The notes under the pieces were generated by a model. That model had not been told where the DNA came from. It saw nothing but the letters and a program-made list of their open reading frames with translations, and made no database searches. A stretch of 64,000 nt of DNA from Promethearchaeota archaeon (lineage in GTDB: Archaea > Asgardarchaeota > Thorarchaeia > Thorarchaeales > Thorarchaeaceae). Location: positions 32,001-96,000 of the forward strand of contig JBHLPF010000003.1 of the NCBI GenBank assembly GCA_048939765.1. The letters are read 5' to 3'. Of the stretch, positions 22,283 through 41,757 are shown in pieces. How positions within the stretch are numbered: the stretch's first letter is position 1; the number at the start of each line of letters is the position of its first letter. The position numbers and the translations under genes are program-made.

Positions 22283-22287
22283 AATCA

Positions 22288-24117: not shown

Positions 24118-25371
24118 TCACACCCTCAGTATCTGCGGCTTAGCCTCTCTCCAGTATGTTATCTTCTCAGGCTCGACCCTCACCATGACTCTGGATACGA
24201 ATGGTTTGTTTTGCCATGCAAGGGGGAGGTCCTTTTCTTGTGTGTCATAGTACTTCATGTATCGTGGATATTTCCTACCAAAGAGAGACCGTACTCTGAG
24301 CATCCATAGTCCATAAAGATACAGTCTGAATAGTCCTAGTGGAGTTACCTCCCCAAGAATCATCGCCTTTCCGCGAAGCATAACAGCTCGATTTTTCATT
24401 ACATTCTTACTGTCTCTCAGATCTACAAGGATAGCGATGTTGGGGTTCTTCTTGATCTTCCGATATTTCGCAGAGGCGAGCGATATTCCGAAATACAAGT
24501 ACTTTCCATCATAGACAAAGATCACTGGAGTCACATGACTCTGGTTCTTTTCACAAAGAGCAACATATGCAAATCGTTCATTGTAGAGGATGCTCTCCAC
24601 ATCGGGCGGGAACCATGGAACTCGTTCCATAGCCAACAGACTTGCTCCCGATAGTGACAGGACAGCGGCGAAGAAGGCACCCAGTCCATACAGCAGCATT
24701 GGTTCAATGCTTGCCAGAGGCAGCAACAGGACGGCTGATGCAGCCCAATACAGATTGACTGAGTCCAAATACTTTAGGGTCCGAACTTCCGAATATGCAG
24801 TGTATTCAAGTCCCCTTCTCCGTCTTGCGGCGCGGCTGAGTGATATAGACCTCCTAGCCGCAAAGAGTGTGGTAATCAACGATAATCCAATTCGATAGGA
24901 AACGTCCCAAATAAGAACTGCAACTAGTGCCATTAGTATTGGGTTGCCAAATCCTGTTCCTAGGTTCTCAGCAAGAAGTGTCGGATTCAGGAGGATGAAT
25001 CCCCAAACACCAGCGAAAAGCGTGATTCCCATTGCAAGCTCGTACCGCCTATCCAGAAGAAGTCGGTTTTTGTATGACTCAAGAACTCTTCTTTCCTCAT
25101 CGTTAGTTGGATTTCTTAAGCGTCTCAGCCACGGGATGACATAAAGACATCCAGCGGACCATACAACAGTATATAGAATTGCCAATGTACCGTAGATGGC
25201 TGAGGTCAAAGGCATTTCGAAATACAGGAATCCAGCAATCCCTATCGCTTCGACCAATAGCAATTGGGCCAAAACGTCGTAAACTGGCGGGAGCCAGCTA
25301 AATGGAGGAACTCTGTCAACTATCTCCTCATAAATCCATTTTCTCTCGGCATGCTGGCTCGTCCCTTGCAT
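24118..25371 (-). CDS. Multi-TM membrane domain fused to a PNPOx-like split-barrel domain
   Basis: About 6 TM N-terminal region; C-terminal HVTPV..SAKYRKIKKNPNIAILVD..AVMLRGKA. Confidence 0.75.
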   Translation of the reverse strand: MQGTSQHAERKWIYEEIVDRVPPFSWLPPVYDVLAQLLLVEAIGIAGFLYFEMPLTSAIYGTLAILYTVVWSAGCLYVIPWLRRLRNPTNDEERRVLESYKNRLLLDRRYELAMGITLFAGVWGFILLNPTLLAENLGTGFGNPILMALVAVLIWDVSYRIGLSLITTLFAARRSISLSRAARRRRGLEYTAYSEVRTLKYLDSVNLYWAASAVLLLPLASIEPMLLYGLGAFFAAVLSLSGASLLAMERVPWFPPDVESILYNERFAYVALCEKNQSHVTPVIFVYDGKYLYFGISLASAKYRKIKKNPNIAILVDLRDSKNVMKNRAVMLRGKAMILGEVTPLGLFRLYLYGLWMLRVRSLFGRKYPRYMKYYDTQEKDLPLAWQNKPFVSRVMVRVEPEKITYWREAKPQILRV

Positions 25372-25474: not shown

Positions 25475-26716
25475 CTACTCATAGATCTCCTCTAACCCAT
25501 CCCACTCCAAGCCTAATGCCTCAGCCATTAGAACTGCAAGGTCCTTAACTACCTTACTCGATCCTGCTTGAGGCAGTTGATCATGCATGAAGTCAACACA
25601 TGAAGGGCAAGATGCAGCAACTACTGAAGCACTTGTCTGTTCAATATCGTCCACTTTCAACTTGCTGATCCGGTTGGCAAACTCGGCGTCAATAGCTCGT
25701 AGCACACCGCCCGACCCGCAGCAGAAACAGTTGCTCTTGTTATGCGGCAGCTCCTCGAAAGTCACCCCAGGCAGGTACTCCAAGACCTTTCTAGGCTGTT
25801 CATAGAAACCTGAGTTCCTTCCCGCGTCGCAGCCGTCATGAAATGTCACAGTAATGTCTAGAGGATTGGTGAATTCCAACTTGTTGGCATCAATAAGCTC
25901 CTCAAAATACTCCGGTCCGTAGATGATTTCGAATGGCGGGTCAATGCCAAGGAACTCGTGATATTCATGGGCCCACATCTTATAGCAGCCCGGGCAATTT
26001 GTCATAACTCGTTCCACCCCGAGTTCCTTGTATTTCTCAATATTATGCTCAGCAAATTGACGAGCGGTCTCGAAGTCGCCTGTCATGATCATAGGCGCTC
26101 CACAACAGACTTCATCTTCACCAAGAAATGTGTACGACTCGCCAGCTTTGTCCATGATCAGAGTGGTGGCAATTGTTGCCTGAATGGAGACTCCACGGAA
26201 TGAGGAGGCACACCCGAAGAAGAATGCAGTCTTTGCCTCTTGGCCCATTGTATCTAAAAGGGCGTCTTCATCTGGATGCCAATACGACCATCCCTCGACT
26301 CTATCCATCTGTGACTGTCCCTGAATGTTCTGGCTGTCAAGTAGGGTCTTCTTTGCCATCTCAAGTTGCTCAGGCCAGAGACCCATCTTCTGGAAGTCTG
26401 ACCTCATCAGTTGGTAAATCTGAACAAAAGGAATGTCCACCTGGCAAATCTCTTCGCATCCTCCACAGAGAGTACATCCGAAAACCGCGTCGCGAAGACC
26501 CTCTAGACCTTCCGACGCCTTCAGGCTTCCCTGGGCCAATGAACGGGCAATGATCATCTTCCCTTTTCCTGAGTAGCTATCTCGGCGCTTCACCTTGTAG
26601 GTCGGACAGGCGCCATGGCCAACTTGGCAGAAGCTACATTGCGCACAAGTATATGGCATATCTTGAAGGTTATGCTTCTTCAGTGATGGGAATTCCATGA
26701 TGTCATTCACAACCAT
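25475..26716 (-). CDS. Fe-S oxidoreductase, 2x[4Fe-4S] plus CCG domains, module E (divergent from the FAD-NuoB fusion)
   Basis: CAQCSFCQVGHGACP, CTLCGGCEEIC, CCG, CPGC, HDGC, CCGSGG, CPSC. Confidence 0.9.
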   Translation of the reverse strand: MVVNDIMEFPSLKKHNLQDMPYTCAQCSFCQVGHGACPTYKVKRRDSYSGKGKMIIARSLAQGSLKASEGLEGLRDAVFGCTLCGGCEEICQVDIPFVQIYQLMRSDFQKMGLWPEQLEMAKKTLLDSQNIQGQSQMDRVEGWSYWHPDEDALLDTMGQEAKTAFFFGCASSFRGVSIQATIATTLIMDKAGESYTFLGEDEVCCGAPMIMTGDFETARQFAEHNIEKYKELGVERVMTNCPGCYKMWAHEYHEFLGIDPPFEIIYGPEYFEELIDANKLEFTNPLDITVTFHDGCDAGRNSGFYEQPRKVLEYLPGVTFEELPHNKSNCFCCGSGGVLRAIDAEFANRISKLKVDDIEQTSASVVAASCPSCVDFMHDQLPQAGSSKVVKDLAVLMAEALGLEWDGLEEIYE

Positions 26717-26935: not shown

Positions 26936-28876
26936 ATGACACTGAAGCCAAAGCTAGTGACGGAACTCGCTGAGGTCTATGAAGACCGAGTGATCACAGA
27001 GAAGCATGAGCTCGTCATCCATGGCATGGATGTTGGTTCTTTGCCCAAACAAGTGGGCTGGTTAATGAACGTCAAGCCTGATGCGATTGTGCAGCCTCAA
27101 ACCCCTGAAGAGATCAGGTTCCTGTACGAGTTTGCAAACAAGTACAAGGTTCCTCTAATACCAAGGGGGGCAGGCACTTCGGGCTATGGTGGTGCAATTC
27201 CTCGAAAGGGAGGCATCATTGTTGACATGCGTGTTATGGACAAGATCGTTGACATCGATGAAGAGAATCTGACTGTCACTGTTGAGCCCGGACTCTCATG
27301 GGCGAATCTGCAATTTGAGCTGAACCGAAAGAACCTAGACCTCCGTTGTTATCCCTCTTCTGGACTCTCTGCAACAATCGGGGGCTGGGTGGCCCAGGGC
27401 GGCGATGGAATTGGGTCTCTCAAGTATGGGAACATCAACAAGAACGTGGTTGCTTTCGAGGTGGTCTTGCCAACTGGAAAGATGATCAAGAGCAAGGACT
27501 GTGACCTGTTCTGTGACACAGAGGGCATTCTTGGAATCATCACTAAGGTGACTCTGAAGATAAAGCCCTTCACTCCTATCAAGGTCATTGTTTCGAGCTT
27601 CCCTGAGAATTATCTGATGGTTCATGCTATAGAGAAGATACTCGAAGATGGTCCTCTTCCATTCACGATAAAGTTCGAAGAAGCAAAGTACACAGACCTG
27701 AAGAAGAAGATCTGGGACAGTGAGGAGAAGTTCCCATTCCCGGTTCATCACTGCACGATTATGGTTGCATATGACGGAGATGAGGAGGAGATTGCAGAGG
27801 GCTTCAGAGTTGTAGAAGAAGTCACAAAGATGTACAAGGGAACTGTTTATGATGAGCATGTGTCTACCCACGAATGGAGTGACCGCTTCTACCCAATGAG
27901 AGTCAAGAAAGCTGGTCCTACCCTCGTTGTTGGCCAAGCATTTGCACCGCTTGAGAACCTAACCGCAATACTTGATGACTGGCAATTTGAACAGGGATCC
28001 GCTAAAGCTGGTATTGATGGCTACGTAAACTCTTTGAATGCTGTCACCATGATGGGCTATTTCCTCGAAGATGAACGGCGCAGATTCTTCATGTTATCCT
28101 GGGCTCAGAGCTTTGTTGTGTTCAAGATTGCACAGCGGCATGGCGGTCATGCTCACTCGACAGGAATCTGGTTCGCCAACCTGGCCGGTCAATACTTTGG
28201 TGCACAGCGACTGGCAAAGATACGTGCAGCCAAGCTTAAGTACGACAAGAAGGAGATATCAAATCCTGGGAAGGTGTTCGCCTATTGGCTACCACTTATT
28301 CTCAAGTTTGGTAAGTATTTCCTCTGGATATTCTATGACCTATTCAGGAATGGGTTTGGCAGGATTGCTCCAATACTTCTGAAGTGGCTCCAGAACCTGC
28401 CGCCACTCAAGTGGGTGCTGCGATGGGGCCGAGCACATAGTCCATGGCCAGTGCAATACGGATTAGGATGTTGCATGGTCGATGGTGCCGCTGGAATCGC
28501 GTCGAGGTGGGACTTTGAACGATTCGGGATGCTCCCCCTCTTTGGCCCGCGGCAGTGTGATGTGCTATGGATATCTGGGTCTCTTACCAAGAAGATGGCT
28601 CCGCGACTGCGAAGAGTCTACGAGATGATGCCAGATCCCAAGTTCGTTATCGCCTTCGGACAGTGCGCGGCCAGTGGCGGCGTCTTTTGGGACGGATACT
28701 CGCTACAGGTTCCGCCTGAGTCTGTAGTACCTGTCGACGTCTATTTGCCCGGGTGTCCTCCGAAGCCTTCAGACTTCGTCAGGGCTCATCTGATACTCCA
28801 GAACAAGATTCGTGCAGGCACGACACACTGGCAAATGAAGTATGAAAACCAGGACGCAATGGGGATGATCCAATGA
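26936..28876 (+). CDS. nuoB: Fusion of a GlcD/VAO-family FAD oxidoreductase and complex I subunit NuoB
   Basis: N-terminal PRGAGTSGYGG, YPSS..ATIGGW, NPGK; C-terminal WP..GLGCC, ERFG, PRQCD..SG, LRRVYEMMPDPK.VIAFGQCAASGG, PVDVYLPGCPP. Confidence 0.93.
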   Translation: MTLKPKLVTELAEVYEDRVITEKHELVIHGMDVGSLPKQVGWLMNVKPDAIVQPQTPEEIRFLYEFANKYKVPLIPRGAGTSGYGGAIPRKGGIIVDMRVMDKIVDIDEENLTVTVEPGLSWANLQFELNRKNLDLRCYPSSGLSATIGGWVAQGGDGIGSLKYGNINKNVVAFEVVLPTGKMIKSKDCDLFCDTEGILGIITKVTLKIKPFTPIKVIVSSFPENYLMVHAIEKILEDGPLPFTIKFEEAKYTDLKKKIWDSEEKFPFPVHHCTIMVAYDGDEEEIAEGFRVVEEVTKMYKGTVYDEHVSTHEWSDRFYPMRVKKAGPTLVVGQAFAPLENLTAILDDWQFEQGSAKAGIDGYVNSLNAVTMMGYFLEDERRRFFMLSWAQSFVVFKIAQRHGGHAHSTGIWFANLAGQYFGAQRLAKIRAAKLKYDKKEISNPGKVFAYWLPLILKFGKYFLWIFYDLFRNGFGRIAPILLKWLQNLPPLKWVLRWGRAHSPWPVQYGLGCCMVDGAAGIASRWDFERFGMLPLFGPRQCDVLWISGSLTKKMAPRLRRVYEMMPDPKFVIAFGQCAASGGVFWDGYSLQVPPESVVPVDVYLPGCPPKPSDFVRAHLILQNKIRAGTTHWQMKYENQDAMGMIQ

Positions 28877-29418
28877 AATTGCGAGAAGACAGCGATCAGT
28901 ACTGCATGCTGCTGATCGGCACAATCATCCTAAGTGCCTATGTCTTTGACATCTTGCTGGCTGTTGTCGCTGATACAGCGATGGCTCTTCACTTTCCGTT
29001 CCTGGTCGGTGGGCCTCTGATCATGGTGTTCTTTCTAATTGGCTACTTCAGGCCAAAGCGCGGCAGGATCAAGGTCAATATGCTCTCTATTGCAATTGTG
29101 ATAGGTGTTCTCTACACAATCTATGTCTTGGTACCATTTGGCGGTGATATCATCTATGCGTCCTGGGGAATGGGAGGCGCAATCCTCCTGGCTGGCGGTT
29201 TCTCAATGTTGGACCCGATGGAGGTCAGTGTGACCCCCGGAATCATGGAGGTCAGCGACTTCAAGTACAAGCCCTTGCCAGAGCCTGAGCCCGAGCCAGA
29301 ACCCGAGGAGGCGGCTGAGGCTGAATCAGAAACGGAAGCCGCCCCTGACACCTCAACTTCAGAAGAGCCAGCTCAAACGGAATCAACTGAAACTACTGAT
29401 GAAACTCCATCAGAATAG
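28873..29418 (+). CDS. Hypothetical 4-TM protein with acidic PE-rich tail
   Basis: ATGA overlap with the fusion gene; four hydrophobic segments; PEPEPEPEP tail. Confidence 0.7.
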   Translation: MKLREDSDQYCMLLIGTIILSAYVFDILLAVVADTAMALHFPFLVGGPLIMVFFLIGYFRPKRGRIKVNMLSIAIVIGVLYTIYVLVPFGGDIIYASWGMGGAILLAGGFSMLDPMEVSVTPGIMEVSDFKYKPLPEPEPEPEPEEAAEAESETEAAPDTSTSEEPAQTESTETTDETPSE

Positions 29419-29513: not shown

Positions 29514-29873
29514 TCATTCACGAAGCCAAGCAAACGCAGCAAACGCCAGGAGCAAACCGAAGGCAACCCATGCAAAGAGGAGAATACCTGCTAGGTCAGT
29601 GTACTGGGTGATGTCCAAATATGCGTGCACACCACCAAAGACTCCAGCAGCCATCGTGGCACCTATGCGGCCACTGCGGGTTGATGCGAATGCAATACCA
29701 AGAGTCGCTACTACGAAGAACAGCCCACTCAAGAAGATGAAGTATTGGAAGGTGAGATCAATCGGTGCTACAGTCAAGATGATCCAGAAGTATGCCCCAA
29801 TGAATCCCATTCCGATTAGAAGCGCGAGGTAATAGAAGAATGTACCCTCTTCTTTGTAAGACAATTGTATCAC
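29514..29873 (-). CDS. Hypothetical 4-TM membrane protein
   Basis: Four hydrophobic helices; GGTG upstream; fills the intergenic gap. Confidence 0.65.
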   Translation of the reverse strand: MIQLSYKEEGTFFYYLALLIGMGFIGAYFWIILTVAPIDLTFQYFIFLSGLFFVVATLGIAFASTRSGRIGATMAAGVFGGVHAYLDITQYTDLAGILLFAWVAFGLLLAFAAFAWLRE

Positions 29874-30206: not shown

Positions 30207-30665
30207 TTGCAGACAGATAGGCTGTTTCTCCAATTCATCCCGGTCTTGGTTTGGGCTATTCTTGTAATCGTTCTGATTGTTATCATGCTGTTGGCATCCT
30301 GGGTGCTGCGACCCCATATACTCCAGAACTCAGAGAAGACTTCTACATACGAATGTGGAGAAGAGCCTATTGGGCCAGCACGAATGTCATTCCCCTATAG
30401 CTACATCATCTACACGATTCTCTTTGTCATCATAGACGTAATGGGCGCATTTCTCTGGCTACTTACTGTTTCACCGCTACGATTGAATCCCATAGTCGCT
30501 TGGCAGACGTTCATCTTCGTCGTGATTATTATGGGTGCAATTGGATATGCGCTGAGGTATCTGCCTCAGACTTCGTTTAATGGTAAGGAAATCCTCGAGG
30601 CATATCGCGCTGCAAAGGCAAAGCGTCTCGAGAAAGCGCACGCATCGGGGAGGGAGCATCATTGA
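30207..30665 (+). CDS. nuoA: Complex I-like subunit A
   Basis: 3 TM, EKTSTYECGEEP, ILFVIIDV. Confidence 0.92.
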   Translation: MQTDRLFLQFIPVLVWAILVIVLIVIMLLASWVLRPHILQNSEKTSTYECGEEPIGPARMSFPYSYIIYTILFVIIDVMGAFLWLLTVSPLRLNPIVAWQTFIFVVIIMGAIGYALRYLPQTSFNGKEILEAYRAAKAKRLEKAHASGREHH

Positions 30666-31333
30666 TGCAAGGATTTGAGTCCGCGTTCGAGTCAGTTGAG
30701 TTTCTGTTGATTGCAGGAATAGTCATTGTACTGGCTTACCTCGCACTGGAACATAGGGAGATTGTGTATGCCGCATTCTTTTTTGGCTTCATGGCGTCGT
30801 TCGTAGCTGGATTCTTCCTTCTATTGGAAGCGCCTTTTGTTGCCGGTATGCAGATTGCGGTGTACACTGGAGGCATAAGTGCGTTAATCATATTCGGCGT
30901 TCTCCTGTTGCCACGAGCACAAGACTCCACACTCGAGGCAATAGAGTCGCCCCACGCCAAGAAAGTTGGCATACTTGTATCCGGCTCCATAATGTTCCTC
31001 TCTGCAATTCTTGCACTGACGTTCCCATGGAACGAAACGATTCCAGAGAGCACAATCGATTCTTCAAACAACGTGGCTCTTCTCGCTGAGTGGTTGTGGG
31101 GAGATCATGGAATCTATGTTCAACTCATCGCACTCATCATTGTGACATCCCTCGTAGGTGTCATCGCGCTCATGAAGATGGATAAGGCAGAGCTGATGAA
31201 AGATGTCGTCGCCGAGTTCGGTATCGAAGCAGCACCAGAACCTGAAGCGCCTGAGCCGGAAGAACCTCCGGAGCCTGAGGAGACCTCTGAGGAAGCTTCT
31301 GAGTCGGAAGTCAGTGAGGAGGTGGCCGACTAA
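30665..31333 (+). CDS. nuoJ: Complex I-like subunit J with acidic tail
   Basis: LEAPFVAGMQIAVYTGGISALIIFGVLL. Confidence 0.9.
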   Translation: MQGFESAFESVEFLLIAGIVIVLAYLALEHREIVYAAFFFGFMASFVAGFFLLLEAPFVAGMQIAVYTGGISALIIFGVLLLPRAQDSTLEAIESPHAKKVGILVSGSIMFLSAILALTFPWNETIPESTIDSSNNVALLAEWLWGDHGIYVQLIALIIVTSLVGVIALMKMDKAELMKDVVAEFGIEAAPEPEAPEPEEPPEPEETSEEASESEVSEEVAD

Positions 31334-31653
31334 TGGTCCCGCTTTCTTGGTATCTTGCTGTTGCATTCATCTTGATAGGCCTTGGTGCCTATGGGATGAT
31401 GGTGAAGAGGAACCTCATCAGAATTCTCATTGGTGCTGAAATCATGGGGAATGGAGTCAGCATCGCTATAGCTGCTTTTGCAGTCTACAGCCCTACCTTT
31501 ACGCTGACAGGACAGGCTCTCATTATTCTCTTGATATCAGTTGCTGCAGCTCACACTGCTCTAGCTCTAGTCTTGATGCTTGCTTACAACAGGCGACATG
31601 GAACAGTGGATCTTGGAAGACCAATCTCACAGGAGGAGAAGCTGGATGTCTGA
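31333..31653 (+). CDS. nuoK: Complex I-like subunit K
   Basis: RNLIRILIGAEIM, VAAAHTALAL, 3 TM. Confidence 0.9.
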   Translation: MVPLSWYLAVAFILIGLGAYGMMVKRNLIRILIGAEIMGNGVSIAIAAFAVYSPTFTLTGQALIILLISVAAAHTALALVLMLAYNRRHGTVDLGRPISQEEKLDV

Positions 31654-32173
31654 AGGTACTCCTATGTCTGCAGCCACATTTGGAAGACAGATTGTCAACA
31701 AGTTTCCTGGCGTTGAATGTACGCCAAAGGAAGATGGTATCCTTGAGTGCATTGTGCCAGCAGACAGGATTAGGGACGTTGTCGGGATGATTGACGAACA
31801 GATAGAAGATGCCTTTCCAGAGAGCGTCTTTGGAGTTGACCTTCAGGAAGACAAGTATGAAGTCATCTACATATTCTGGTCTCGAACCAATAGGACACTG
31901 TATCACCTTCGTGTTTCACTTGAGGGCACCAATCCCGAGGTGGACACAGTGTGTGACATATTCCCCGGCATGGAGTGGCATGAGAGAGAGACCTGGGAGA
32001 TGTTTGGAATCAACTTCAAGGGCCATCCTGACCTCAGGCTACTTTTGCTTCCTGAGGAGCTGGAAGGGAAGTATCCTCTTAGAAAGAGCTTCGTGACAGA
32101 TAGATCACGGCTCAATGAGGCTGATAAAACGCCTCCAAAGCCCAAGCCACCAGAAGGAGGTGCAACCGAATGA
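31646..32173 (+). CDS. nuoC: Complex I-like subunit C
   Basis: WHERETWEMFGINFKGHPDLR..YPLRK; AGGAGG before ATG 31646. Confidence 0.92.
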   Translation: MSEGTPMSAATFGRQIVNKFPGVECTPKEDGILECIVPADRIRDVVGMIDEQIEDAFPESVFGVDLQEDKYEVIYIFWSRTNRTLYHLRVSLEGTNPEVDTVCDIFPGMEWHERETWEMFGINFKGHPDLRLLLLPEELEGKYPLRKSFVTDRSRLNEADKTPPKPKPPEGGATE

Positions 32174-33306
32174 GCCCTGACATCATAGATGAAACAACTG
32201 AAGTCTGGTTTGGGCCACAGCACGTATCCGCGCACGGATGGGCGGCCAAACTGACTCTTGTTGGAGACTTTGTAGTGGAATGTGATCCGAACGCCGGATA
32301 CTTCCATAGATCTGCTGAGAAGTGCTTGGAGTTCCGGAACTTCCAGCAAGGGTCTCTCATCATGGAACGGCTCTGCATGCTTGAGGCATTTCTAGCTGAA
32401 TATCCCTACATCATGGCGGTTGAGAAGATAGCAGGGCTCGAAGTACCTGAACGAGCCAAGGTCATACGTACGATTATGATGGAGGCCAGCCGAATTCATT
32501 CATTGCAGTTCTGGTGGGGTCAATTCTCGGCTGAGCTCGGCTTATTCGCTATGTTGCTGTGGCCGTGGGTTGACCGTGAGTTCTTCCTCGACACTTTCGA
32601 GGAGCTCAGCGGTTCTCGTCATGCTGTTTCTTTCAGCACTCCTGGAGGAATAAGATATGATTTCACTGACAAGGTGCTCAGGAAGCTCGATATTGCCTTG
32701 GAGCGGTTTGAGGATCGGATGCCTATGATGCGAGACATGCTCATGGGTAGTCCTACTTTCAGAGCAAGGACAGAGGGCATTGGTCAGTATACGCTGAAAC
32801 AGGGGCTGAAGTACGGCTTGAGTGGACCACCGATTAAAGCATGTGGTCTACCAATGGACCTACGAAAAGATGCCCCTGACCCGAATCTAGCCTACGATAT
32901 GATCGATTGGGAAGTTCCAATTACAGAGAGCAAGGAGCATCCTGGGGAGAGTGATGCCTACGATAGGATGGTCCAGCGATTCAAAGAGATGGAGACCTCA
33001 GCAGATATAATTCGAAAACTCATTCCATTAATTCCTGAGGGCCCGATTGTTGACCCCAAGGCACGAGCCAAGGCAAACAGACTTCCAGAGGGTGAGGCAT
33101 ACGGTCGTGTCGAAGGAACAAGAGGAATCTCAACTCTCTGGCTTAAGACCACTGAAAAGGCGCAGACTCCATACAGGGCCAAGATACGCGGACCCTGTTT
33201 CAACTCTTACTACTCATTGAAACATCTGGTCCCGGGTGCGAAGTTTGCAGACTTCATTGCCATTTTTGGATCGCTTGATCCATATCCAGGGTGGTGGGAT
33301 CGCTGA
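32170..33306 (+). CDS. nuoD: Complex I-like subunit D (not a [NiFe] large subunit)
   Basis: FGPQHVSAHG, GYFHRSAEK, ERLCMLE, terminal SLDPYPGWWDR. Confidence 0.9.
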   Translation: MSPDIIDETTEVWFGPQHVSAHGWAAKLTLVGDFVVECDPNAGYFHRSAEKCLEFRNFQQGSLIMERLCMLEAFLAEYPYIMAVEKIAGLEVPERAKVIRTIMMEASRIHSLQFWWGQFSAELGLFAMLLWPWVDREFFLDTFEELSGSRHAVSFSTPGGIRYDFTDKVLRKLDIALERFEDRMPMMRDMLMGSPTFRARTEGIGQYTLKQGLKYGLSGPPIKACGLPMDLRKDAPDPNLAYDMIDWEVPITESKEHPGESDAYDRMVQRFKEMETSADIIRKLIPLIPEGPIVDPKARAKANRLPEGEAYGRVEGTRGISTLWLKTTEKAQTPYRAKIRGPCFNSYYSLKHLVPGAKFADFIAIFGSLDPYPGWWDR

Positions 33307-33317
33307 TGGGAGGTGTC

Positions 33318-34451
33318 ATGTTGCAAATAGACTTCTTCGCTTGGCTTCAAGGAATCCCTTCGTGGATCTACGGTGTGATTCAGTGGTTCTTCTACCTTGT
33401 CAGCGGGATATTCTACTGGATATGGGGGATATTCACTTGGATCTGGGCAGCTCTATTTGATGTAGCCAACTTCTTTTTCCTGATTCGAGCAATACTATTC
33501 CCGGGTCTTGTCTTCATCCTCATGACGATTATCTTCGCAGTCTGGTATACTCGCAAGCTCTGGGGTAGAATTCAAGACAGACGAGGTCCTTTCCACCTAG
33601 GGAAATACGGAGGTCTCCAGCTCTTCGCAGACGCAATCAAGCTTGTGGGGAAAGAGACTATCATTCCCGATAAGGCGAGGCGTTGGATGTACAGATTTCT
33701 TCCATCCTTGCTGCTTCTTGTCGTACTCATACCTTTCGCATTCATTCCATGGGATCCAGTATGGTACATCGCTGACCTCTCAGTCAGCCTCGTGCTTGTC
33801 TTTGCATTCTTGACAGCTGTTCCTGTAATTGCGTTGCTGTCCGGATGGATAAGCGGTTCAAAGTACACCCTAATTGGTGGGTTTAGAGCAGCTAACAATC
33901 AGTTCGCTAGCGAGATTCCGCTAATCATCTCATCCGTTGGTCCTGCGATGATTGCTGGGTCTCTTAGCGTAATGGGAATCTCGATGGCTCAGTCTAATAT
34001 CTGGTTCATCTTCCTGCTACCAATCAACTTGGCCACCTTCTTGGTCGCATCTATCGCATCCGTTGGTACATTTCCATTCGATGCCCCAGTTGCTGACTCG
34101 GAGGTCATCTTTGGTTGGAGGACTGAGTTCAGTGGTATTTACTTCACGCTCACTTATTTCGCGGAGTTCGCCGAGCAGGCGCTTTACTCAGCACTCATAG
34201 TTGCACTATTCCTTGGCGGGTTCCAAGGACCAGATTTCTTGCCAGGGAGTGTGATATTCATCATCAAGTTCCTGATCGTATTCTTCTTTTTCGTCGTTGT
34301 GACTTCATCGTTCCATCGACTTAGACAGGACCAGATTGTATACTTCTGCTGGAAGTATCTACTTCCATTGTCAATCCTGAACGTTATGCTTGTGATGTTG
34401 GGAATCGCCAACATACCCCTGCTACAAGCAATTATTGGAATAGGAGGCTAG
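33318..34451 (+). CDS. nuoH: Complex I-like subunit H
   Basis: RKLWGRIQDRRGP, GLQLFADAIKLVGKE, SKYTLIGGFRA, PFD, RLRQDQ; GGAGGTG before ATG 33318. Confidence 0.93.
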   Translation: MLQIDFFAWLQGIPSWIYGVIQWFFYLVSGIFYWIWGIFTWIWAALFDVANFFFLIRAILFPGLVFILMTIIFAVWYTRKLWGRIQDRRGPFHLGKYGGLQLFADAIKLVGKETIIPDKARRWMYRFLPSLLLLVVLIPFAFIPWDPVWYIADLSVSLVLVFAFLTAVPVIALLSGWISGSKYTLIGGFRAANNQFASEIPLIISSVGPAMIAGSLSVMGISMAQSNIWFIFLLPINLATFLVASIASVGTFPFDAPVADSEVIFGWRTEFSGIYFTLTYFAEFAEQALYSALIVALFLGGFQGPDFLPGSVIFIIKFLIVFFFFVVVTSSFHRLRQDQIVYFCWKYLLPLSILNVMLVMLGIANIPLLQAIIGIGG

Positions 34452-34457
34452 AGCAAG

Positions 34458-34889
34458 ATGGGATTCTTCAGAAACCTAGGTGACATATTCCAGATATTGA
34501 GACATATATTCCGTCAAGTGATGTCCCGTCCATTCACGTACTTCTATCCATTCGAGGACAGGGAATATCCCGAGAGGACTCGTGGCAGGCACATTCACGT
34601 GCGAGAGAATTGCACAGCCTGCATGCAGTGTGTACGAGCTTGTCCTGTTGTAGCTATTAGTATCGATAAGAGTGATAAGAAGTTCGAGAAGGACGCAGCC
34701 CTAACCTTTGATTATACAAGGTGTATCTTCTGTGGCTTATGCGTTCAAGCCTGCAGATTTGATGCACTATTTCACACCCAGGTGGTAGATATCAGCGAGG
34801 GAGAGAGGGAGGACTTGGTCTACGGTCCTGACAAGATAGAGACTCTCGATAGAGACCCGCTTGAGTGGCGTGGAAGGAGGTTCCGTTGA
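34458..34889 (+). CDS. nuoI: Complex I-like subunit I, 2x[4Fe-4S]
   Basis: TYFYPFE..RTRGRH, CTACMQCVRACP, CIFCGLCVQAC. Confidence 0.93.
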   Translation: MGFFRNLGDIFQILRHIFRQVMSRPFTYFYPFEDREYPERTRGRHIHVRENCTACMQCVRACPVVAISIDKSDKKFEKDAALTFDYTRCIFCGLCVQACRFDALFHTQVVDISEGEREDLVYGPDKIETLDRDPLEWRGRRFR

Positions 34890-36406
34890 TGCAGCTAGCA
34901 TTCGAGTTCCCATTTATGACCTTGTCCTTACTAGTCCTCTTTATCGGAGGGCTTTTGATCTACCTCTTCCGCGGTCGACTCGAAAAGACGTCTGGAAAAA
35001 TCGCAGTTGGCTTCTCGGCGGTGGGGGCATTGCTAATGGTGCCTCCATTCTACCGCATCCTGGTCGAAGGTGGTCGGGCGGCTGAGAAGGTTTCGTGGTC
35101 AGTTGTGCTCGGAGAGTTCGGTCTCTATTTGGATGAGATTGCCTTCCCAATTACGTTCGCAGTTGTTGTCTTGGGATTCCTTTCAGTCATCTATGCCGTA
35201 GGTTATACTGAGCATACTGAGAACAAGCCCACCTTCTTCGCAAACACACTATTCTTCATAATGGGCATGCAAGGAGTGACGCTTGCCACCAATTTGCTGG
35301 AGTTCTTCATTTTCTGGGAAATCATGCTTGTCCCATCATACTTCCTGATTCTGTTTTGGGGCTTGCCTGAGACCCGAAAACGAACCGCCCTCAAGTTCTG
35401 GCTCTATACACAGGCTGGAGCGGTCTGTATTCTGATCGCCCTAGGACTTTTGTACTTCTTCACAGGCACCTTTGAACTCTACACCATACTAGCAATGGCT
35501 CCTGCCATATGGTCAGACCTCCGACTATTGCAGATTATTTTCATCTTGTTCGCTGCTGGCTTTTTAGTCAAGATGGCAGCTTTCCCTGTGCATTGGTGGT
35601 TGCCTCCAGTTCACGCCGAAGCTCCGACTCCTATCTCAGTTCTGCTATCCGGAGCTATGATTGAGACTGGTGCATATGCTCTCGTCCGTTTCGGAATCAT
35701 AACGCTTGGACCTGCAGCTGCGTCTCTCTCATTCTGGATTGGAGTACTTGGTGTGGCTACGATGTTCTACGGAGGAGCTATGGCGCTCGTCCAGAAAGAC
35801 ATCAAGAGACTGCTAGCCTACTCATCGGTCTCCCAGATGGGCTACGTTTTGTTTGCACTCGGAATGATAACCACAATGGGGGTATCCGGTGGTCTATTCC
35901 ACCTCATCAATCACGCCTTCAGCAAGGGTGTCTTGTTTATGACTGCTGGAGCGGTGATTCATCAGACTCATCTAAGGGACGTCGACAAGATGGGCGGTCT
36001 CTCAAACAAGATGCCCATCACCGCATTTGCCGCGGCTATCGGCGCAATGAGCATCGCAGGGAGCCCCCCTCTCTCTGGATTCGCCAGTGAGTGGATGATG
36101 TTTCTCGGCGGCTTTGACGCCGCTCAGATGGGACCAGGAGGCCTTGCAAGACCTGAGTTCTTCTTCCTGTCCATCTTGGCTGTTTCAAGCTCCATATTGA
36201 GTGCCGGCTACATGCTCCGGTATCTCTGGAAGGTCTTTCTTGGGCCTCATCCAGCTGAACTGGAGGATGTCAAGGAGAGCTCGGACTGGATGACTGCTCC
36301 AATGATCATCCTTGGAGTTCTCATCGTGTTATTTGGAATATTCCCAGGATTGGCACTGGATGTCATAGTTCCTGGCGTAGAAGGAATATCTACCCTGCTT
36401 CCATGA
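34889..36406 (+). CDS. nuoM: Antiporter-like subunit NuoM, copy 1
   Basis: FWEIMLVPSYFLI..WG, KFWLYT, VKMAAFPVHWWLP..HAEAP, AYSSVSQMG, PPLSGFASE. Confidence 0.85.
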   Translation: MQLAFEFPFMTLSLLVLFIGGLLIYLFRGRLEKTSGKIAVGFSAVGALLMVPPFYRILVEGGRAAEKVSWSVVLGEFGLYLDEIAFPITFAVVVLGFLSVIYAVGYTEHTENKPTFFANTLFFIMGMQGVTLATNLLEFFIFWEIMLVPSYFLILFWGLPETRKRTALKFWLYTQAGAVCILIALGLLYFFTGTFELYTILAMAPAIWSDLRLLQIIFILFAAGFLVKMAAFPVHWWLPPVHAEAPTPISVLLSGAMIETGAYALVRFGIITLGPAAASLSFWIGVLGVATMFYGGAMALVQKDIKRLLAYSSVSQMGYVLFALGMITTMGVSGGLFHLINHAFSKGVLFMTAGAVIHQTHLRDVDKMGGLSNKMPITAFAAAIGAMSIAGSPPLSGFASEWMMFLGGFDAAQMGPGGLARPEFFFLSILAVSSSILSAGYMLRYLWKVFLGPHPAELEDVKESSDWMTAPMIILGVLIVLFGIFPGLALDVIVPGVEGISTLLP

Positions 36407-36411
36407 GGTGA

Positions 36412-38736
36412 TTGACAGTGTTGCTAGGACTCCCCTATTGGCTTATCCTCGTAATTCCACTGCTTGGCTCCCTCCTCGTTCCACTTGTTGGAAGGTTCAG
36501 TGAGCGTGCACGAGACTGGACTCCTGCGATCCTAATGGGAATCTCTATGGTCTTCTGCTGGTCGCTGCTGCCTGAAATCGGCCATCCTACTCAGACAACA
36601 AGCTGGATGTGGATTGAAGTTCTAGGGCTCGAATTTGAAGTGCTTCTAGATCCGCTCTCTGTTGTGATGGGCATTCTAGCCAGCACCCTCTGTTTCCTCA
36701 TCTATGTCTATTCAACCGAATATATGGCTCATGAAGGAGACCGTGACCGGTTCTTCTTCCTCATGCTTGCCTTCGGCGGCGGAATGCTCACGCTCGTGCT
36801 CAGCAACAATCTGCTGATCGCATTCATCGGATGGGAGATCATGGGATTCTGCTCCTACGGTTTGATAGGATTCTGGAATGACAAGAGGAACCCTCCCGAG
36901 ACCGACCCGACAGACATTCACTACACAAACCCACTTCTTCAATTCAAGACCGAGGGACAGTATAACACTCACTGCGGGACCAAGGCATTCGTTGTTACCC
37001 GTATCGGTGATGCATTCATGCTTGGTGGAATCCTGATTCTCTTCGTCTTCACCGGCACTTTCTCATTCACCGAGATGGCTGCTGATGCCCAATCTTGGTG
37101 GAGCACCATGGCTGGCATTGGCATGCTAGTGCCTACATTCTTGCTTATCTTCATGGGCGCTATTGGTAAGTCTGGACAGGCACCATTGCAGGTTTGGCTA
37201 CCAGAGGCTATGGCGGGTCCAACAAGCGTATCTGCTCTCATCCACGCTGCAACGATGGTCAAGGCGGGAGTCTATATCACCGCACGATTCCTAGTCACAA
37301 TGGTATCAGCAGCTGGCGGTGAGGGAAATGGAGGAGAACATATTGCTGGTCTACAGGCAATTGGCTTTGAGGCTGCACTGACGTTCTTCATCTTTGTAGC
37401 GATTATAGGCGGCATAACTGCCCTCATGACTGCGACCATGGGAATGGTCTCAAACGAGCTCAAGCAGATACTGGCGTTCTCAACACTCAGCCAGCTTGGA
37501 TACATGATGCTCTCACTAGGTGTGGGTGGCGTTCTTCAGGCCGAGGGACTTCATTTCGGTGATGCATACTTGAGTGGCGTTATGCATGTGATTTCGCATG
37601 GTGCCTTCAAGGCTCTTTTGTTCCTTGCATCAGGAGGAGTCATCCATGCTGTGCATTCGAAGTTCATTACCAAGATGGGGGGTCTCAAGCAACACATGCG
37701 TAAGACCTTCATCGTTATGTGGATTGGTGTTCTCGCTCTTGCAGGCATACCGCCGTTCTCAGGGTTCTGGTCAAAGGACTCTATCATCGAGTATGCCTAT
37801 GAGCTGGCGGTTGAATGGCCGAATCCGTTAGGTTGGATGCTATTCTTCTTTGCAGTCCTAGCAGCCGCCTGCACACTATTTTATAGCCTCCGACTCATGG
37901 GCATCACTTTCTATGGCCCTTCCAAGGAGAGTCACGACCATCACGAGTCACACGGCTCACACGAGAATGAGGAATCCGAAGAACATGAAGAGTTACATTA
38001 TGATGACCTAGATGAGCAAGAAGAATCGCATGATGATGATTCAGAGGAGCATGAAGAACCGCATGACAGCCCCTCTGAAGAGCAGGATCACTCAACTCCT
38101 CATGATCCGGGACCGGCAATGATGGTGCCATTGTATATACTAGCGGCTTTCACAATCATTGCATTCCTCGTCTTCCCATTCGTTCAGAACATTGTGCTTG
38201 AGGAGAGCCACACCTGGGCTGAGAACTTTGCTCACATGATAGAAGTCAAGCTAACCTACCCGGGCATCGTGCCGTTCATGATTACACTTGGCGCACTCGC
38301 TTTGGGTGGAATTCCTGGATATGTGATGTACATCAGGGGTGCAGACACTCCCAACACTTGGGTTCCGGAGAAAGGCTTTCGAAGGAGAGTTCATAATTTC
38401 CTCAAGCACCGATGGTACATCAACGAAATGTACTATGGATTACTAAACCGATTCCTGAGTGCTGCCGAGCGTTACCGAGTGAATGTTGACGATAAGATCA
38501 TCGATGGCATCGACTTCAAGTCCGCTGACACAGGCAAAGGCCTTGCCACCAAATTGAGGTGGTTCGATGACAATGTGGTTGACGGCTTTGCTGAGGGGGT
38601 ATCTACGTACAGTGTTGCCGCTTCAGAGTCTGGCCAATCTGCACAGACTGGTCGAGTCAATGACTACGTTGGAGTGATCATGTTCGGGATTGGGATACTT
38701 GTCATCATTGTTCTTCTGTCGCTGGGGGTGCTCTAG
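36412..38736 (+). CDS. nuoL: Antiporter-like subunit NuoL with His/acidic insert and extended lateral helix
   Basis: GWEIMGFCSY, KAFVVTRIGD, GKSGQAPLQVWLPEAMAGPT.VSALIHAATMVKAG, GFWSKD, WYINEMY..QTG. Confidence 0.93.
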   Translation: MTVLLGLPYWLILVIPLLGSLLVPLVGRFSERARDWTPAILMGISMVFCWSLLPEIGHPTQTTSWMWIEVLGLEFEVLLDPLSVVMGILASTLCFLIYVYSTEYMAHEGDRDRFFFLMLAFGGGMLTLVLSNNLLIAFIGWEIMGFCSYGLIGFWNDKRNPPETDPTDIHYTNPLLQFKTEGQYNTHCGTKAFVVTRIGDAFMLGGILILFVFTGTFSFTEMAADAQSWWSTMAGIGMLVPTFLLIFMGAIGKSGQAPLQVWLPEAMAGPTSVSALIHAATMVKAGVYITARFLVTMVSAAGGEGNGGEHIAGLQAIGFEAALTFFIFVAIIGGITALMTATMGMVSNELKQILAFSTLSQLGYMMLSLGVGGVLQAEGLHFGDAYLSGVMHVISHGAFKALLFLASGGVIHAVHSKFITKMGGLKQHMRKTFIVMWIGVLALAGIPPFSGFWSKDSIIEYAYELAVEWPNPLGWMLFFFAVLAAACTLFYSLRLMGITFYGPSKESHDHHESHGSHENEESEEHEELHYDDLDEQEESHDDDSEEHEEPHDSPSEEQDHSTPHDPGPAMMVPLYILAAFTIIAFLVFPFVQNIVLEESHTWAENFAHMIEVKLTYPGIVPFMITLGALALGGIPGYVMYIRGADTPNTWVPEKGFRRRVHNFLKHRWYINEMYYGLLNRFLSAAERYRVNVDDKIIDGIDFKSADTGKGLATKLRWFDDNVVDGFAEGVSTYSVAASESGQSAQTGRVNDYVGVIMFGIGILVIIVLLSLGVL

Positions 38737-38737
38737 A

Positions 38738-40282
38738 ATGCAGCTAGATCTCATCCAAAATCTTATCGCAATGTTGCCTATGGAAAGCATCCTCCCCTTC
38801 ATGCTTTTCCTACCACTTGTAGCAGCATTCATCGCTTACATCGTTGGAGGCAGAGGAGCTAGAGCAATTACCATTGCCATTACTTTCTTCGAGCTGTTGC
38901 TTTCAATCGTCCTTATTGTCGCCATTTTGCCTAATCCTGGAGCAATGTGGTATGAATGGACATTTACACTCAGTACAGTGCAATTCGCAAGCTGGACCGC
39001 GGTTCTTCAGATATTTCTTGGAGTCGATGGAATCTCAGTTGCTATGGTGTTCCTATCAAACCTCGTAGTCTTCATTGCGGCTCTTAGCTCAAATCATATC
39101 CACAAATCCAGGCACCTGTATTACATGTTCTTCCTGATGCTCCAGACAGGGCTGCTTGGCGTTTTCATGTCATTTGATCTTATCAGCTTCTTCATTTTCT
39201 GGGAGTTGGTCCTGATACCGATGTTCTTCATAATTGGTAGATGGGGAGAAGAGGGATGTGAACATGCAGCTGTCAAATTCTTCATCTATACACATCTTGG
39301 ATCGGCTGTGATGCTGGTCTCATTCATGGCACTGTTCTTCCTGGGACCCGGTACATTCAACATGATTGCTATCAAGGCTGCACCCATTGCAATCAACATC
39401 CAAATTGGTTTTGCTCTGGCTGTCTTTCTGGGTGCTGGCGTCAAGCTCCCAGTGTTTCCCTTGCACAACTGGCTTCCATGGGCCCACGTTAAAGCACCGA
39501 CTCCTGGTTCAGTGATACTCGCTGGGATACTCTTGAAGATGGGAGGATATGGATTCATCAGACTAGGTCTCTGGATGGTCCCGCAGGGATTTGCTCGACT
39601 CAGTATCCCATTCGCTGTCCTCGCGGTCTTCACATGCATCTATGCTGCATTCGTAGCAATGGGCCAGACTGACGTGAAGTCAATGGTCGCCTACACATCG
39701 ATAAACCACATGGCTTGGGTGTTGCTTGGAGTTGCCATTGGAGGATTTGCCATCGGTGGTGGAGCTACGGAAGGTCAGCTCTTCTCAGCTAGTCTTGCAG
39801 TTCAGGGAGCGGTTTTCATGATGGTATCTCATGGGATGATCTCCTCTGTCATGTTCATCCTCGCCGGCCAGCTGAAGTACTCAGCTGGAAGCAGATTGAT
39901 ACCTGATGTCATGGGTCTGATGACAAAGGCTCCTAGGATGTCGGCAGTCTTTATCCTCGCAGTCTTCGCAGCCTTTGGATTGCCCGGAATGAGTGGATTC
40001 ATTGCGGAAGCATTAGTGCTCTTTGGCTCTGTGAATGTCTATATCTGGTCTGGCTTCATTGCGTTCGGCATCTTTGTCACAGTGGGCTATCTCCTCTGGA
40101 CACTGAACCGAATTGTGTTTAGTGACCCTGATTCTGAGAAGGAAGTTACTGAAGCACCATGGAGTGATCTTATTGCGCCAATCTTGATGATGATACCAGT
40201 GATTATCCTTGGGCTCTGGCCAGACCTTGTCCTTAATCTAGTGATACCAATAGTCAATGACATGATAGGGGTGATTCCATGA
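38738..40282 (+). CDS. nuoM: Antiporter-like subunit NuoM, copy 2
   Basis: LGVDGIS, FWELVLIPMFFII..WG, VKLPVFPLHNWLP.AHV.AP..GSVILAGILLKMGGYG, LPG.SGFIAE. Confidence 0.92.
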   Translation: MQLDLIQNLIAMLPMESILPFMLFLPLVAAFIAYIVGGRGARAITIAITFFELLLSIVLIVAILPNPGAMWYEWTFTLSTVQFASWTAVLQIFLGVDGISVAMVFLSNLVVFIAALSSNHIHKSRHLYYMFFLMLQTGLLGVFMSFDLISFFIFWELVLIPMFFIIGRWGEEGCEHAAVKFFIYTHLGSAVMLVSFMALFFLGPGTFNMIAIKAAPIAINIQIGFALAVFLGAGVKLPVFPLHNWLPWAHVKAPTPGSVILAGILLKMGGYGFIRLGLWMVPQGFARLSIPFAVLAVFTCIYAAFVAMGQTDVKSMVAYTSINHMAWVLLGVAIGGFAIGGGATEGQLFSASLAVQGAVFMMVSHGMISSVMFILAGQLKYSAGSRLIPDVMGLMTKAPRMSAVFILAVFAAFGLPGMSGFIAEALVLFGSVNVYIWSGFIAFGIFVTVGYLLWTLNRIVFSDPDSEKEVTEAPWSDLIAPILMMIPVIILGLWPDLVLNLVIPIVNDMIGVIP

Positions 40283-41757
40283 TGCTACAATTCTCAACGA
40301 TAATCGATGCTATCAGCGACATCCTGAGTCCCTTCTTTGCACTTGTCCCGGCGGAGTGGCTGGTATCGCTGCCAGCATTGACACTTATCCTATTCGGAAT
40401 CATTGCACTTATTGTTGGAATGAGAAGAAGTCCATTGGCAGTAAGTTTCATTGGTCTATTCCTTGCGGGTCTTGAGATGATTCTCATCGACCCAGGTTCT
40501 TCATTTGGAGGGCTATTCGTAAGAGACATGTTTGGTGATTTCTTCATCTGGATCATTCTTGTTGTCGCGTTTATTATCTTGCTCTCGTCAACTACATATG
40601 GAGGAAATAGAGGCACATACAACTTTCTCCTCATGATGTCATTTGCTGGCGCAATATGGGTCGTCATGGCGACTGATCTTATTGCCCTGTATCTTGCCTG
40701 GGAATTAATGAGTACTCCAACATACATACTCGTCGCCTTAGGACCTCATCGAGGAGCCATAGACGGAGCAACGAAGTACTTCGTCATGGGACTGGTGTCT
40801 TCAGGCCTTATCGTATTTGGAATCGCACTAGTCTATGGCGCTACAGGTTATACAAGCTTTGCAGCGATAGGCACATTCGTGGCTTCTGTGTGGAGTGCCG
40901 GTTCACCTTCCGCCTATGCAATGCTTCTTGCTATGGTGCTATTCCTGATAGGCTTCGGATTCAAAGTCGGGGTGTTCCCAGGATGGATGTGGGTTCCGGA
41001 TGCATACGCCACCGCCGATGGAAGCGTTACAGGTTATCTCGCCGGCGCGACCAAAAAGACCGGTGTCAGTGCCTTGCTCAGAATACTGCTTGTAGGATTT
41101 GTTGCAGCGCAGTTGGAATGGATGCCTGTGGTTGTGACCATCTCCATCCTTACAATGGTCATTGGAAACATCCTTGCGCTCTCACAACGTAATATCATGA
41201 GAATGTTTGCTTTCTCGTCGATTATGATGATGGGCCTCCTTTTCGTGGGGATAGCTGCAGGGACTGCTTTCGGAGCAGCAGCTGCGATGTTCACTGCGTT
41301 TGCCCATGCTCTCATAAAGACAGGTGCATTCATCCTCGTCTGGGCATTAGCTGTGTCTATTGGAAAAGAAGTCACATATGAAGATCTGAAAGGGCTCAGT
41401 ACCCGTGCTCCGGTTGTGGCCCTACTAATGGCCGTTCTGGTCTTTGCGCTGGCAGGTGCTCCTTTCACAGCAGGATTCTGGTTCAAGTGGTTCCTATTGC
41501 CTGGAGCTGCGGTTGATGCCGGACTTTGGTGGTTGGCAATAATTGCTGTACTGAACTCAGTGTTCGCACTTGGCTATTATCTGAGGATTCTCAGGTATTG
41601 CTACTTCATGGAACCAACAGAAAGCACAATCCTGCGCATACCAACAATTCCTCTTGTCGCAGTGGTACTCGCAGTCGTGGGCACAATAGTAATTGGCATA
41701 TTCCCAGGTCTAATCCTAGACTATGCATCATTAGCAGCTGGAGTCCTCGTCCCATAG
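40279..41757 (+). CDS. nuoN: Antiporter-like subunit NuoN
   Basis: WELMS.P.Y.L, KYFVMG, FKVGVFP..WVPDAY, AGAPFTAGFWFK, YYLR. Confidence 0.9.
   Translation: MMLQFSTIIDAISDILSPFFALVPAEWLVSLPALTLILFGIIALIVGMRRSPLAVSFIGLFLAGLEMILIDPGSSFGGLFVRDMFGDFFIWIILVVAFIILLSSTTYGGNRGTYNFLLMMSFAGAIWVVMATDLIALYLAWELMSTPTYILVALGPHRGAIDGATKYFVMGLVSSGLIVFGIALVYGATGYTSFAAIGTFVASVWSAGSPSAYAMLLAMVLFLIGFGFKVGVFPGWMWVPDAYATADGSVTGYLAGATKKTGVSALLRILLVGFVAAQLEWMPVVVTISILTMVIGNILALSQRNIMRMFAFSSIMMMGLLFVGIAAGTAFGAAAAMFTAFAHALIKTGAFILVWALAVSIGKEVTYEDLKGLSTRAPVVALLMAVLVFALAGAPFTAGFWFKWFLLPGAAVDAGLWWLAIIAVLNSVFALGYYLRILRYCYFMEPTESTILRIPTIPLVAVVLAVVGTIVIGIFPGLILDYASLAAGVLVP

Follow-up and report, generated by a model that had tools for sequence, protein, structure and literature searches.

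A flavoprotein fused to the NuoB subunit of a head-less complex I-like enzyme in one clade of Thorarchaeia

Homologues of complex I are thought to exchange detachable input heads (NuoEFG, FpoF, or ferredoxin) and to pass electrons to a lipid carrier. In Methanomassiliicoccales, an Fpo-like pump lacking the NuoEFG or FpoF head occurs together with an HdrD-type protein (two [4Fe-4S] clusters and two CCG domains) that lacks HdrE, no lipid carrier is evident, and a direct interaction of the pump with HdrD was assumed in the ferredoxin:heterodisulfide oxidoreductase model (PMC7374477). Fpo-associated HdrD and GlcD proteins were proposed for Methanomethylicia, Bathyarchaeia, and Korarchaeia, where a GlcD-like gene stands beside an HdrD-like gene and the complex I homologue is devoid of NuoEFG (PMC10667645, PMC6421429). 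Here, we analyze a 64,000-nucleotide stretch of a Promethearchaeota archaeon genome of the Thorarchaeia lineage (the window; assembly GCA_048939765.1, contig JBHLPF010000003.1, positions 32,001 to 96,000), in which a flavoprotein is encoded in one frame with NuoB, the N2-cluster subunit of a complex I-like enzyme.

The locus shares with these systems a pump without the NuoEFG or FpoF head and a gene for an HdrD-like protein. In Methanomassiliicoccales, the contact between the pump and HdrD is assumed and no flavoprotein takes part, whereas here the HdrD-like protein is predicted to sit on a flavin domain that is covalent with NuoB; the fusion-bearing archaea, in addition, lack methanogenesis. 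In Methanomethylicia, Bathyarchaeia, and Korarchaeia, the corresponding genes are separate and a lactate:heterodisulfide reaction was proposed, whereas the present flavoprotein forms one chain with NuoB and is devoid of the catalytic residues of lactate dehydrogenases. Thus, the N2 subunit of this complex I-like enzyme is covalently attached to a redox module, consisting of the flavoprotein itself and, according to complex modelling, of the HdrD-like protein.

The fusion occupies a single uninterrupted frame of the forward strand that begins at 26921 (TTG) or 26936 (ATG) and ends at 28876. The ATG at 26936 is the likely start, because the orthologous proteins are 646 amino acids long. The resulting protein of 646 amino acids has three parts:

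26936..28279, + strand: flavin adenine dinucleotide (FAD) domain of the GlcD/LDHD fold, residues 1-448, with NPGKV as its last residues; defined by Pfam and by the match of the AlphaFold2 (AF2) model to mouse LDHD (mLDHD)
28280..28360, + strand: amphipathic helix rich in aromatic and basic residues, residues 449-475; defined by hydropathy and AF2
28361..28876, + strand: complete complex I-type NuoB, residues 476-646, with its own N-terminal helices and the N2 ligands C512, C513, C577, and C607

A first-pass annotation made from the sequence without database searches had described this frame as a full FAD domain joined to a complete NuoB by an aromatic and basic amphipathic linker. The frame, the alignments, and the Pfam matches (FAD_binding_4, 2.5e-38; FAD-oxidase_C, 7e-7; Oxidored_q6, 6e-24) bear this out, and the three families are those named in that annotation for a hidden Markov model (HMM) search. 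The AF2 model of the fusion has a mean predicted local distance difference test score (pLDDT) of 84.8 and a predicted template modelling score (pTM) of 0.69. It contains three inter-domain helices (451-472, 474-486, and 489-500) that are aromatic and basic and have a high hydrophobic moment. In the alignment with free-standing Asgard NuoBs, the residues from approximately 476 onward correspond to the N-terminal helix of NuoB itself; therefore, the flavoprotein supplies just one amphipathic helix as a spacer. The Kyte-Doolittle peak of the linker, 1.28, is below transmembrane (TM) grade and the segment is amphipathic, so that a TM helix at this position is not supported. In distant homologues of the flavoprotein, a tail of this kind precedes a TM helix; judging by these data, the helix of residues 449-475 is the membrane-surface tail of this flavoprotein subfamily.

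The fusion is a stable feature of one archaeal clade. A search of 5.8 billion proteins yielded 47 clusters with the same three-domain architecture, with identities of 71-95%, nearly all exactly 646 amino acids long, and encoded on contigs of up to 3.16 Mb. All but two bear the label Thorarchaeota, the exceptions being assigned to Hodarchaeota and Promethearchaeota. When 1.84 billion representatives were scanned exhaustively by HMMER for the NuoB part, a single fused cluster was retrieved, the next match being a free NuoB of 185 amino acids with 62% identity. Among 400 Asgard genomes surveyed in six frames, 51 encode the fusion at full length in a single frame, all from 12 genera (g1-g12) of one Thorarchaeia family, one of them a single-contig assembly; several further copies are interrupted by contig ends. 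The only split copy (G334) comes from an assembly with many frameshifts and was set aside, as the adjoining genes are frameshifted too. An assembly chimera or a stop codon lost in this bin alone is refuted by the recurrence of the same 646-residue frame in these genomes and protein clusters and on contigs of such length; nothing in its favor was found, and the probability left to it is negligible.

In genus g14, two genomes (L012, G385:C64; L007, GCA_964648855.1) contain an unfused homologue of 499 amino acids, 56-57% identical to the fusion, directly 3' of the CCG partner gene. Its C-terminus ends in PPLKW(I/L), within a KW.L...PPLKW stretch homologous to the start of the NuoB N-terminal helix. 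Because of this ending, the g14 form is probably a truncated former fusion.

The architecture appears to be undescribed and restricted to this clade. NCBI names the fusion proteins simply 'NuoB'. A systematic survey of archaeal gene fusions lists NuoBC and NuoBCD as the only NuoB fusions (PMC11237513), and a GlcD-NuoB fusion was described nowhere in the literature searched, which took in that survey and a structural one of complex I-like enzymes from Asgard archaea (bioRxiv 10.1101/2024.07.04.601786). This agrees with the first-pass remark that the architecture was not known from any characterized complex.

The NuoB part belongs to the N2-subunit family of complex I. It aligns with residues 24-160 of Thermus thermophilus Nqo6 and with cyanobacterial NdhK (E ~1e-41), the aligned stretch, fusion residues 490-627, extending across the whole NuoB domain. 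The Oxidored_q6 score is 84.6 bits (Pfam cut-off 27), and the NCBIfam cut-offs for NuoB subfamilies are passed by both NF005012 (168.6 vs. 116) and TIGR01957 (160.8 vs. 142.7). The four cysteines C512, C513, C577, and C607 align with the N2 ligands of Nqo6, and their motifs were located where the initial reading had placed them: the tandem CC at 28469-28474, GQCAASGG at 28658-28681, and PGCPP at 28748-28762. Thus, the similarity to NuoB/Nqo6/NdhK/PSST covers the whole-domain alignment, the tandem CC plus two further cysteines, and the co-localization with nuoA, C, D, H, I, J, K, L, M, and N. The differences are the additional 475 N-terminal residues of flavoprotein and helix and the position of the gene, which is set apart from nuoA behind a convergent gene. 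The genes around the fusion are:

25475-26716, - strand: HdrD-like partner, divergent from the fusion, with two [4Fe-4S] and two CCG domains and no TM helix (Pfam Fer4_8 and 2x CCG)
28873..29418, + strand: small protein with 3-4 TM helices and an acidic PEPE tail (open reading frame of 181 amino acids); its start overlaps the stop codon of the fusion (ATGA)
29514..29873, - strand: convergent gene for a protein of 119 amino acids with 3 TM helices, between the fusion unit and nuoA-N
30207..31653, + strand: nuoA, nuoJ, and nuoK (Pfam Oxidored_q4, q3, and q2)
31580..34889, + strand: nuoC, nuoD, nuoH, and nuoI (Pfam)
34865..41757, + strand: four antiporter-like subunits, namely NuoM-like (513 amino acids), NuoL (774), NuoM-like (530), and NuoN-like (492) (Pfam Proton_antipo_M; NCBIfam NuoM/NuoL)

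In three other genera (L004, L014, and L010), we observe the same order of genes: HdrD-like, fusion, small TM protein, convergent 3-TM protein, a spacer of ~375 nucleotides, nuoAJKCDHI, and the four antiporter-like genes. The small TM protein keeps its position there with 38-41% identity and matches no Pfam or NCBIfam family; it is a candidate accessory subunit. The convergent 119-residue protein is conserved in the same genera.

As stated in the first-pass annotation, nuoA runs directly to nuoJ, and the Pfam scan agrees that the cluster itself has no nuoB. The fusion was accordingly called the only NuoB of the window, and its standing as the only NuoB for the cluster has been borne out by a genome-wide search for a free-standing gene. 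The genome (88.5% complete) contains three Oxidored_q6 genes, namely the fusion and two MvhG genes adjoining MvhD and the [NiFe] large subunit MvhA, and only one NuoD. Five relatives (97-99% complete) have an extra free NuoB-like gene, which stands beside its own NuoC gene and a NuoD-like gene with the motifs RICGICSATH and DPCFSCTDR. Because of these NiFe motifs in the adjoining large subunit, and because the small subunit of this second complex has CxxC rather than the tandem CC of the fusion, the extra gene encodes, by its motifs, the small subunit of a true group 4 [NiFe] hydrogenase, for which a distinct set of C, D, H, and I genes is present. The possibility that another, canonical nuoB serves the cluster was rejected on both counts, that is, the MvhG-type paralogs in the genome itself and the hydrogenase subunits in relatives. 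The second, compact complex of the A-B-C-D-H-I type with full NiFe motifs, a membrane-bound [NiFe] hydrogenase, is seen in most relatives (e.g., L008, G392:C6, and L013, G321:C24) and was not found in the 88.5% complete genome under study.

The reported absence of nuoE/F/G and fpoF holds for the window. Elsewhere in the genome there are a NuoE/F/G-like cluster and two FrhB-like genes, one adjoining FdhA and the other an orphan on contig C86. The NuoE-like (155 amino acids), NuoF-like (613 amino acids, with an extra Fer4), and NuoG/molybdopterin-like (770 amino acids) proteins are encoded together with a DHODB-type iron-sulfur (FeS) subunit (G000:C80:47000-60999). From this gene content, the trio probably represents either a soluble formate dehydrogenase linked to NAD(P) or a complex of the bifurcating type, and as a head for the pump it was rejected in view of the accompanying DHODB-type subunit. 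The FrhB-like genes, too, look like parts of soluble formate dehydrogenases or bifurcating-type enzymes, and enzymes of these kinds were described for other Asgard archaea (bioRxiv 10.1101/2024.07.04.601786).

The flavin domain has the fold of D-2-hydroxyacid dehydrogenases without their catalytic motifs. Among solved structures, mouse LDHD and LctD are its closest relatives (E 1e-26), Foldseek superimposes the AF2 model on mLDHD with a TM-score of 0.83, and both FAD_binding_4 and FAD-oxidase_C are shared with LDHD, GlcD, and YdiJ. When aligned to mLDHD, the domain lacks the HxGDGNxH and EHG motifs: HVGDGNFH is replaced by YVNSLNAV and GEHGIG by HAHSTG, so that H398, H405, and E442 correspond to Y, V, and A, respectively (an A in the mLDHD entry 8jdb is the H405A mutation). 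Only the His of EH is retained, and it is not invariant across the subfamily. The equivalog scores are far below the cut-offs, 127.8 vs. 567.9 bits for glcD and 67.3 vs. 1350 for YdiJ. Hence, the label of a GlcD, LDHD, D2HGDH, or YdiJ D-2-hydroxyacid dehydrogenase fails, and the initial description of the protein as a substrate-specific GlcD-type enzyme has to be abandoned: the His/His/Glu metal and substrate residues are replaced and every GlcD and YdiJ cut-off is missed.

The subfamily has invariant motifs of its own, TSGYGGAIP, EW..R..PM..K..GP, and DER. In Bacillota, close homologues occur as fusions with FeS/CCG domains like those of the partner gene, and such fusions also occur among YdiJ-type relatives. 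In a homologue from Hydrothermarchaeota (P0054, 38% identity), the flavoprotein is joined to a membrane anchor of the NrfD/PsrC type, which is, as far as domain composition tells, a second way for the subfamily to attach to a membrane redox module.

The HdrD-like partner (25475-26716) contains two [4Fe-4S] motifs of the ferredoxin type along with two complete CX(31-39)CCX(35-36)CXXC motifs, as the first reading of this gene as a 2x[4Fe-4S]/CCG protein had it. The cysteine columns are invariant or near-invariant in the alignment, both C..CC..CxxC motifs being invariant. GlpC, LdhH, and TfrB score as relatives, and the TfrB, GlpC, GlcF, and HdrB equivalog scores are all below the cut-offs. Orthologs of the partner are limited to the clade of the fusion and co-distributed with it. 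The suggestion that this neighbor is the partner of the flavoprotein gains support from complex prediction: for the FAD domain (residues 1-450) with the HdrD-like protein, the score is 0.92 vs. 0.00 for the best of three controls. A mark this high was attained by 58 of 80 solved complexes against 2 of 110 mismatched pairs, a calibration that is approximate here, as our own alignments were used and ligands rode along. Three runs agree in at least 96% of contacts, with a partner pLDDT of at least 91. The predicted interface places the [4Fe-4S] domain of the partner (residues 19-94) against the FAD loops and private motifs of the flavoprotein (residues 79-81, 142-145, 318-330, and 379-381). Because the ferredoxin-like domain of the HdrD-like protein lies beside the FAD loops in the predicted complex with the flavin domain, the prediction supports a module with an FAD - 2x[4Fe-4S] - 2x CCG chain, held at the membrane surface.

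The pump to which this module is attached lacks features of quinone- and F420-linked enzymes. NuoD contains ERLCMLE at the position of the RLDY of complex I, so that the quinone-binding Tyr (Tyr87 in Nqo4) is lost; the replacement is conserved in L004 and L014. The NiFe cysteines (RxCGxCxxxH and DPCxxCxxH/R) are absent from NuoD, their places being taken by ERLCMLE and SLDPYPGWWDR, both conserved, and assignment to group 4 [NiFe] hydrogenases (MBH/Ech) was therefore rejected. Of the solved proteins, MbsL from the sulfane reductase MBS is the closest to NuoD (E 3.6e-59) and outranks the NuoD of complex I; the equivalent of the first MbsL cysteine is retained and the second is absent. The locus further differs from MBS in having a membrane arm of the Nuo rather than the Mrp type. 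The FpoD model gives 233 against a cut-off of 600.

Markers of lipid and F420 carriers are missing as well. MqnA/D was found in none of the 41 genomes of the family that are at least ~90% complete, MqnC and MenD are below the cut-offs in five fusion-bearing genomes, and so is CofH, which is needed for F420; the nuo cluster contains no FrhB-family gene. Menaquinone as a shared carrier was rejected for want of biosynthesis markers, and F420 input via FpoF is unlikely with no CofH. Because of the missing menaquinone and F420 markers and the loss of the quinone-binding Tyr from NuoD, the pump is probably not an NADH:quinone or F420H2:phenazine enzyme.

In the membrane arm, the NuoL of 774 amino acids contains a long TM-free stretch before the last helix, and the arm with four antiporters is conserved in L004, L014, and L010. 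Four antiporter-like subunits and a lengthened NuoL with a lateral helix are also known in the 2M complex I of Nitrospira (PMC9040806); the 2M complexes, in contrast, keep a free NuoB and NuoEFG.

A natural explanation of these data is that the tethered FAD/HdrD-like module is a dedicated redox partner of the pump, probably on the acceptor side. We hold this view tentatively, rating its chances at slightly below even; any passage of electrons from the module to N2 or NuoI, or the reverse, is inferred. Ferredoxin would donate electrons at NuoI, being the likeliest donor by analogy with head-less relatives (PMC6421429, PMC7374477), and the module would most likely reduce a soluble disulfide or another cytoplasmic acceptor. 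This has parallels in the ferredoxin:heterodisulfide oxidoreductase model of Methanomassiliicoccales (PMC7374477) and in the HdrD/GlcD proteins proposed to associate with Fpo in other archaea (PMC10667645). The physical tether of the flavoprotein to the pump, proposed in the first-pass annotation, is itself real and clade-conserved. A more specific version, possible but doubtful, is that the fused flavin domain and its HdrD-like partner form the terminal reductase of a quinone-independent proton pump that directs ferredoxin electrons through NuoI and N2 to a soluble acceptor. In this version, the electrons would pass NuoI and N2 and exit through the covalently attached FAD/FeS/CCG chain, while the complex I-like arm with its four antiporters would pump ions without a lipid carrier.

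Several observations weigh against a dedicated partnership of this kind. In the AF2 model, the inter-domain helices have pLDDT values of only 55-66, and hence the spacer geometry is of low confidence. In solved complex I, the N-terminus of NuoB is situated at the membrane heel, away from the NuoI docking face and from the docking places of NuoG, FpoF, and ferredoxin. NuoD keeps the His of the quinone-site loop GPQH..AHG (FGPQHVSAHG; Nqo4 His38), and lipid carriers outside the marker searches, for instance methanophenazine-like ones, are conceivable. By its arrangement, the fusion belongs to a transcription unit distinct from the nuoA-N operon proper, because a convergent minus-strand gene plus 375 nucleotides intervene between the fusion with its small partner frame and nuoA. 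Paralogous GlcD-like/CCG pairs in the same window adjoin other membrane proteins. Finally, genus g14 keeps the flavoprotein with its tail and the CCG partner (56-66% identity) in the absence of an orthologous nuo cluster, which suggests that the flavoprotein/CCG module can function without the pump.

The last observation fits a scenario in which the FAD/HdrD-like pair is a self-sufficient monotopic oxidoreductase linked to the pump only by a shared lipid-soluble carrier, the fusion merely keeping the pair beside the pump in place of the TM anchor of its homologues. The amphipathic tail is ancestral to the subfamily, homologues have a TM helix or, as P0054, an NrfD-type anchor, and the relatives of the partner by score, GlpC, LdhH, and TfrB, are CCG proteins. 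Such co-localization without wiring would, however, require a carrier, for which no candidate is known: the MqnA/D, MqnC, and MenD markers are missing from the fusion-bearing genomes and NuoD is devoid of the quinone-binding Tyr. We therefore regard it as unlikely. The electrons could also flow in the opposite direction, from a substrate at the FAD or thiols at the CCG site to NuoB/NuoI and further to a reduction at the NuoD site, e.g., of a sulfur compound; this corresponds to the built-in flavin module in place of NuoEFG or FpoF that the first-pass annotation had put forward. The absence of NuoEFG and FpoF from the operon, the attachment of the flavoprotein to the N2 subunit itself, and the proximity of NuoD to MbsL with its first cysteine kept are consistent with such an input. 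Nevertheless, the catalytic residues of 2-hydroxyacid dehydrogenases and the second MbsL cysteine are absent, and four antiporter-like subunits would need a large driving force, fitting low-potential ferredoxin better than a flavin-level donor; we consider input through the module quite improbable.

A still smaller chance is given to a flavin domain that exchanges no electrons and has a structural, assembly, or regulatory role. Precedents exist in the nucleotide-binding NDUFA9 beside PSST and in the VAO-family GLDH on assembly intermediates of plant complex I. GLDH on plant complex I (7a24_z, an FAD_binding_4 protein) is indeed among the solved relatives, and the loss of the canonical catalytic residues would be understandable in a structural subunit. 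The FAD-binding motifs and the motifs of the interface with the FeS partner are, however, invariant, the HdrD-like partner retains all cluster ligands, and the pair persists without the pump in g14, making this role very unlikely.

If the module is wired to the pump, the question of how head-less Fpo-like complexes of Methanomassiliicoccales, Methanomethylicia, Korarchaeia, and Asgard archaea obtain or dispose of electrons becomes testable, as does the direct docking of HdrD-type modules. If it is in fact a terminal reductase, the fusion would be the first physical (Rosetta-stone) evidence that head-less Fpo-like complexes and HdrD/GlcD modules of archaea are coupled directly, as has long been assumed, and complex I-type coupling would be possible without a lipid carrier. 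In either case, the database names mislead, the fusion being called 'NuoB' and its relatives 'glycolate oxidase' or 'D-lactate dehydrogenase', and this bears on metabolic reconstructions of Asgard archaea.

Further gene sets of related composition occur around the nuo clusters. In the window, upstream of the HdrD-like gene (20828-25371, - strand), there are a DUF7530 protein with 6 TM helices that continues into a PNPOx-like flavin domain, a stand-alone PNPOx-like protein, a 407-residue protein, and another GlcD-like flavoprotein. The 407-residue protein begins with a signal peptide, contains a C-x4-CH motif, and has a His-rich TM domain at its C-terminus. From its composition, this set may be a candidate transmembrane electron conduit. 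The same four genes are upstream in L004, together with further GlcD-like/CCG pairs. In another Asgard family (L015, G003:C175), the gene for the closest free NuoB (59% identity) stands between nuoA and a B12/radical-SAM gene; nuoJ, nuoK, and nuoN are divergent there, and two GlcD-like genes and a CCG gene are situated within 9 kb of nuoA-nuoB. In the window, the nuo cluster is immediately followed by a gene (41963-42637, - strand) for a small GTPase of the Ras/Roc family, typical of Asgard genomes.

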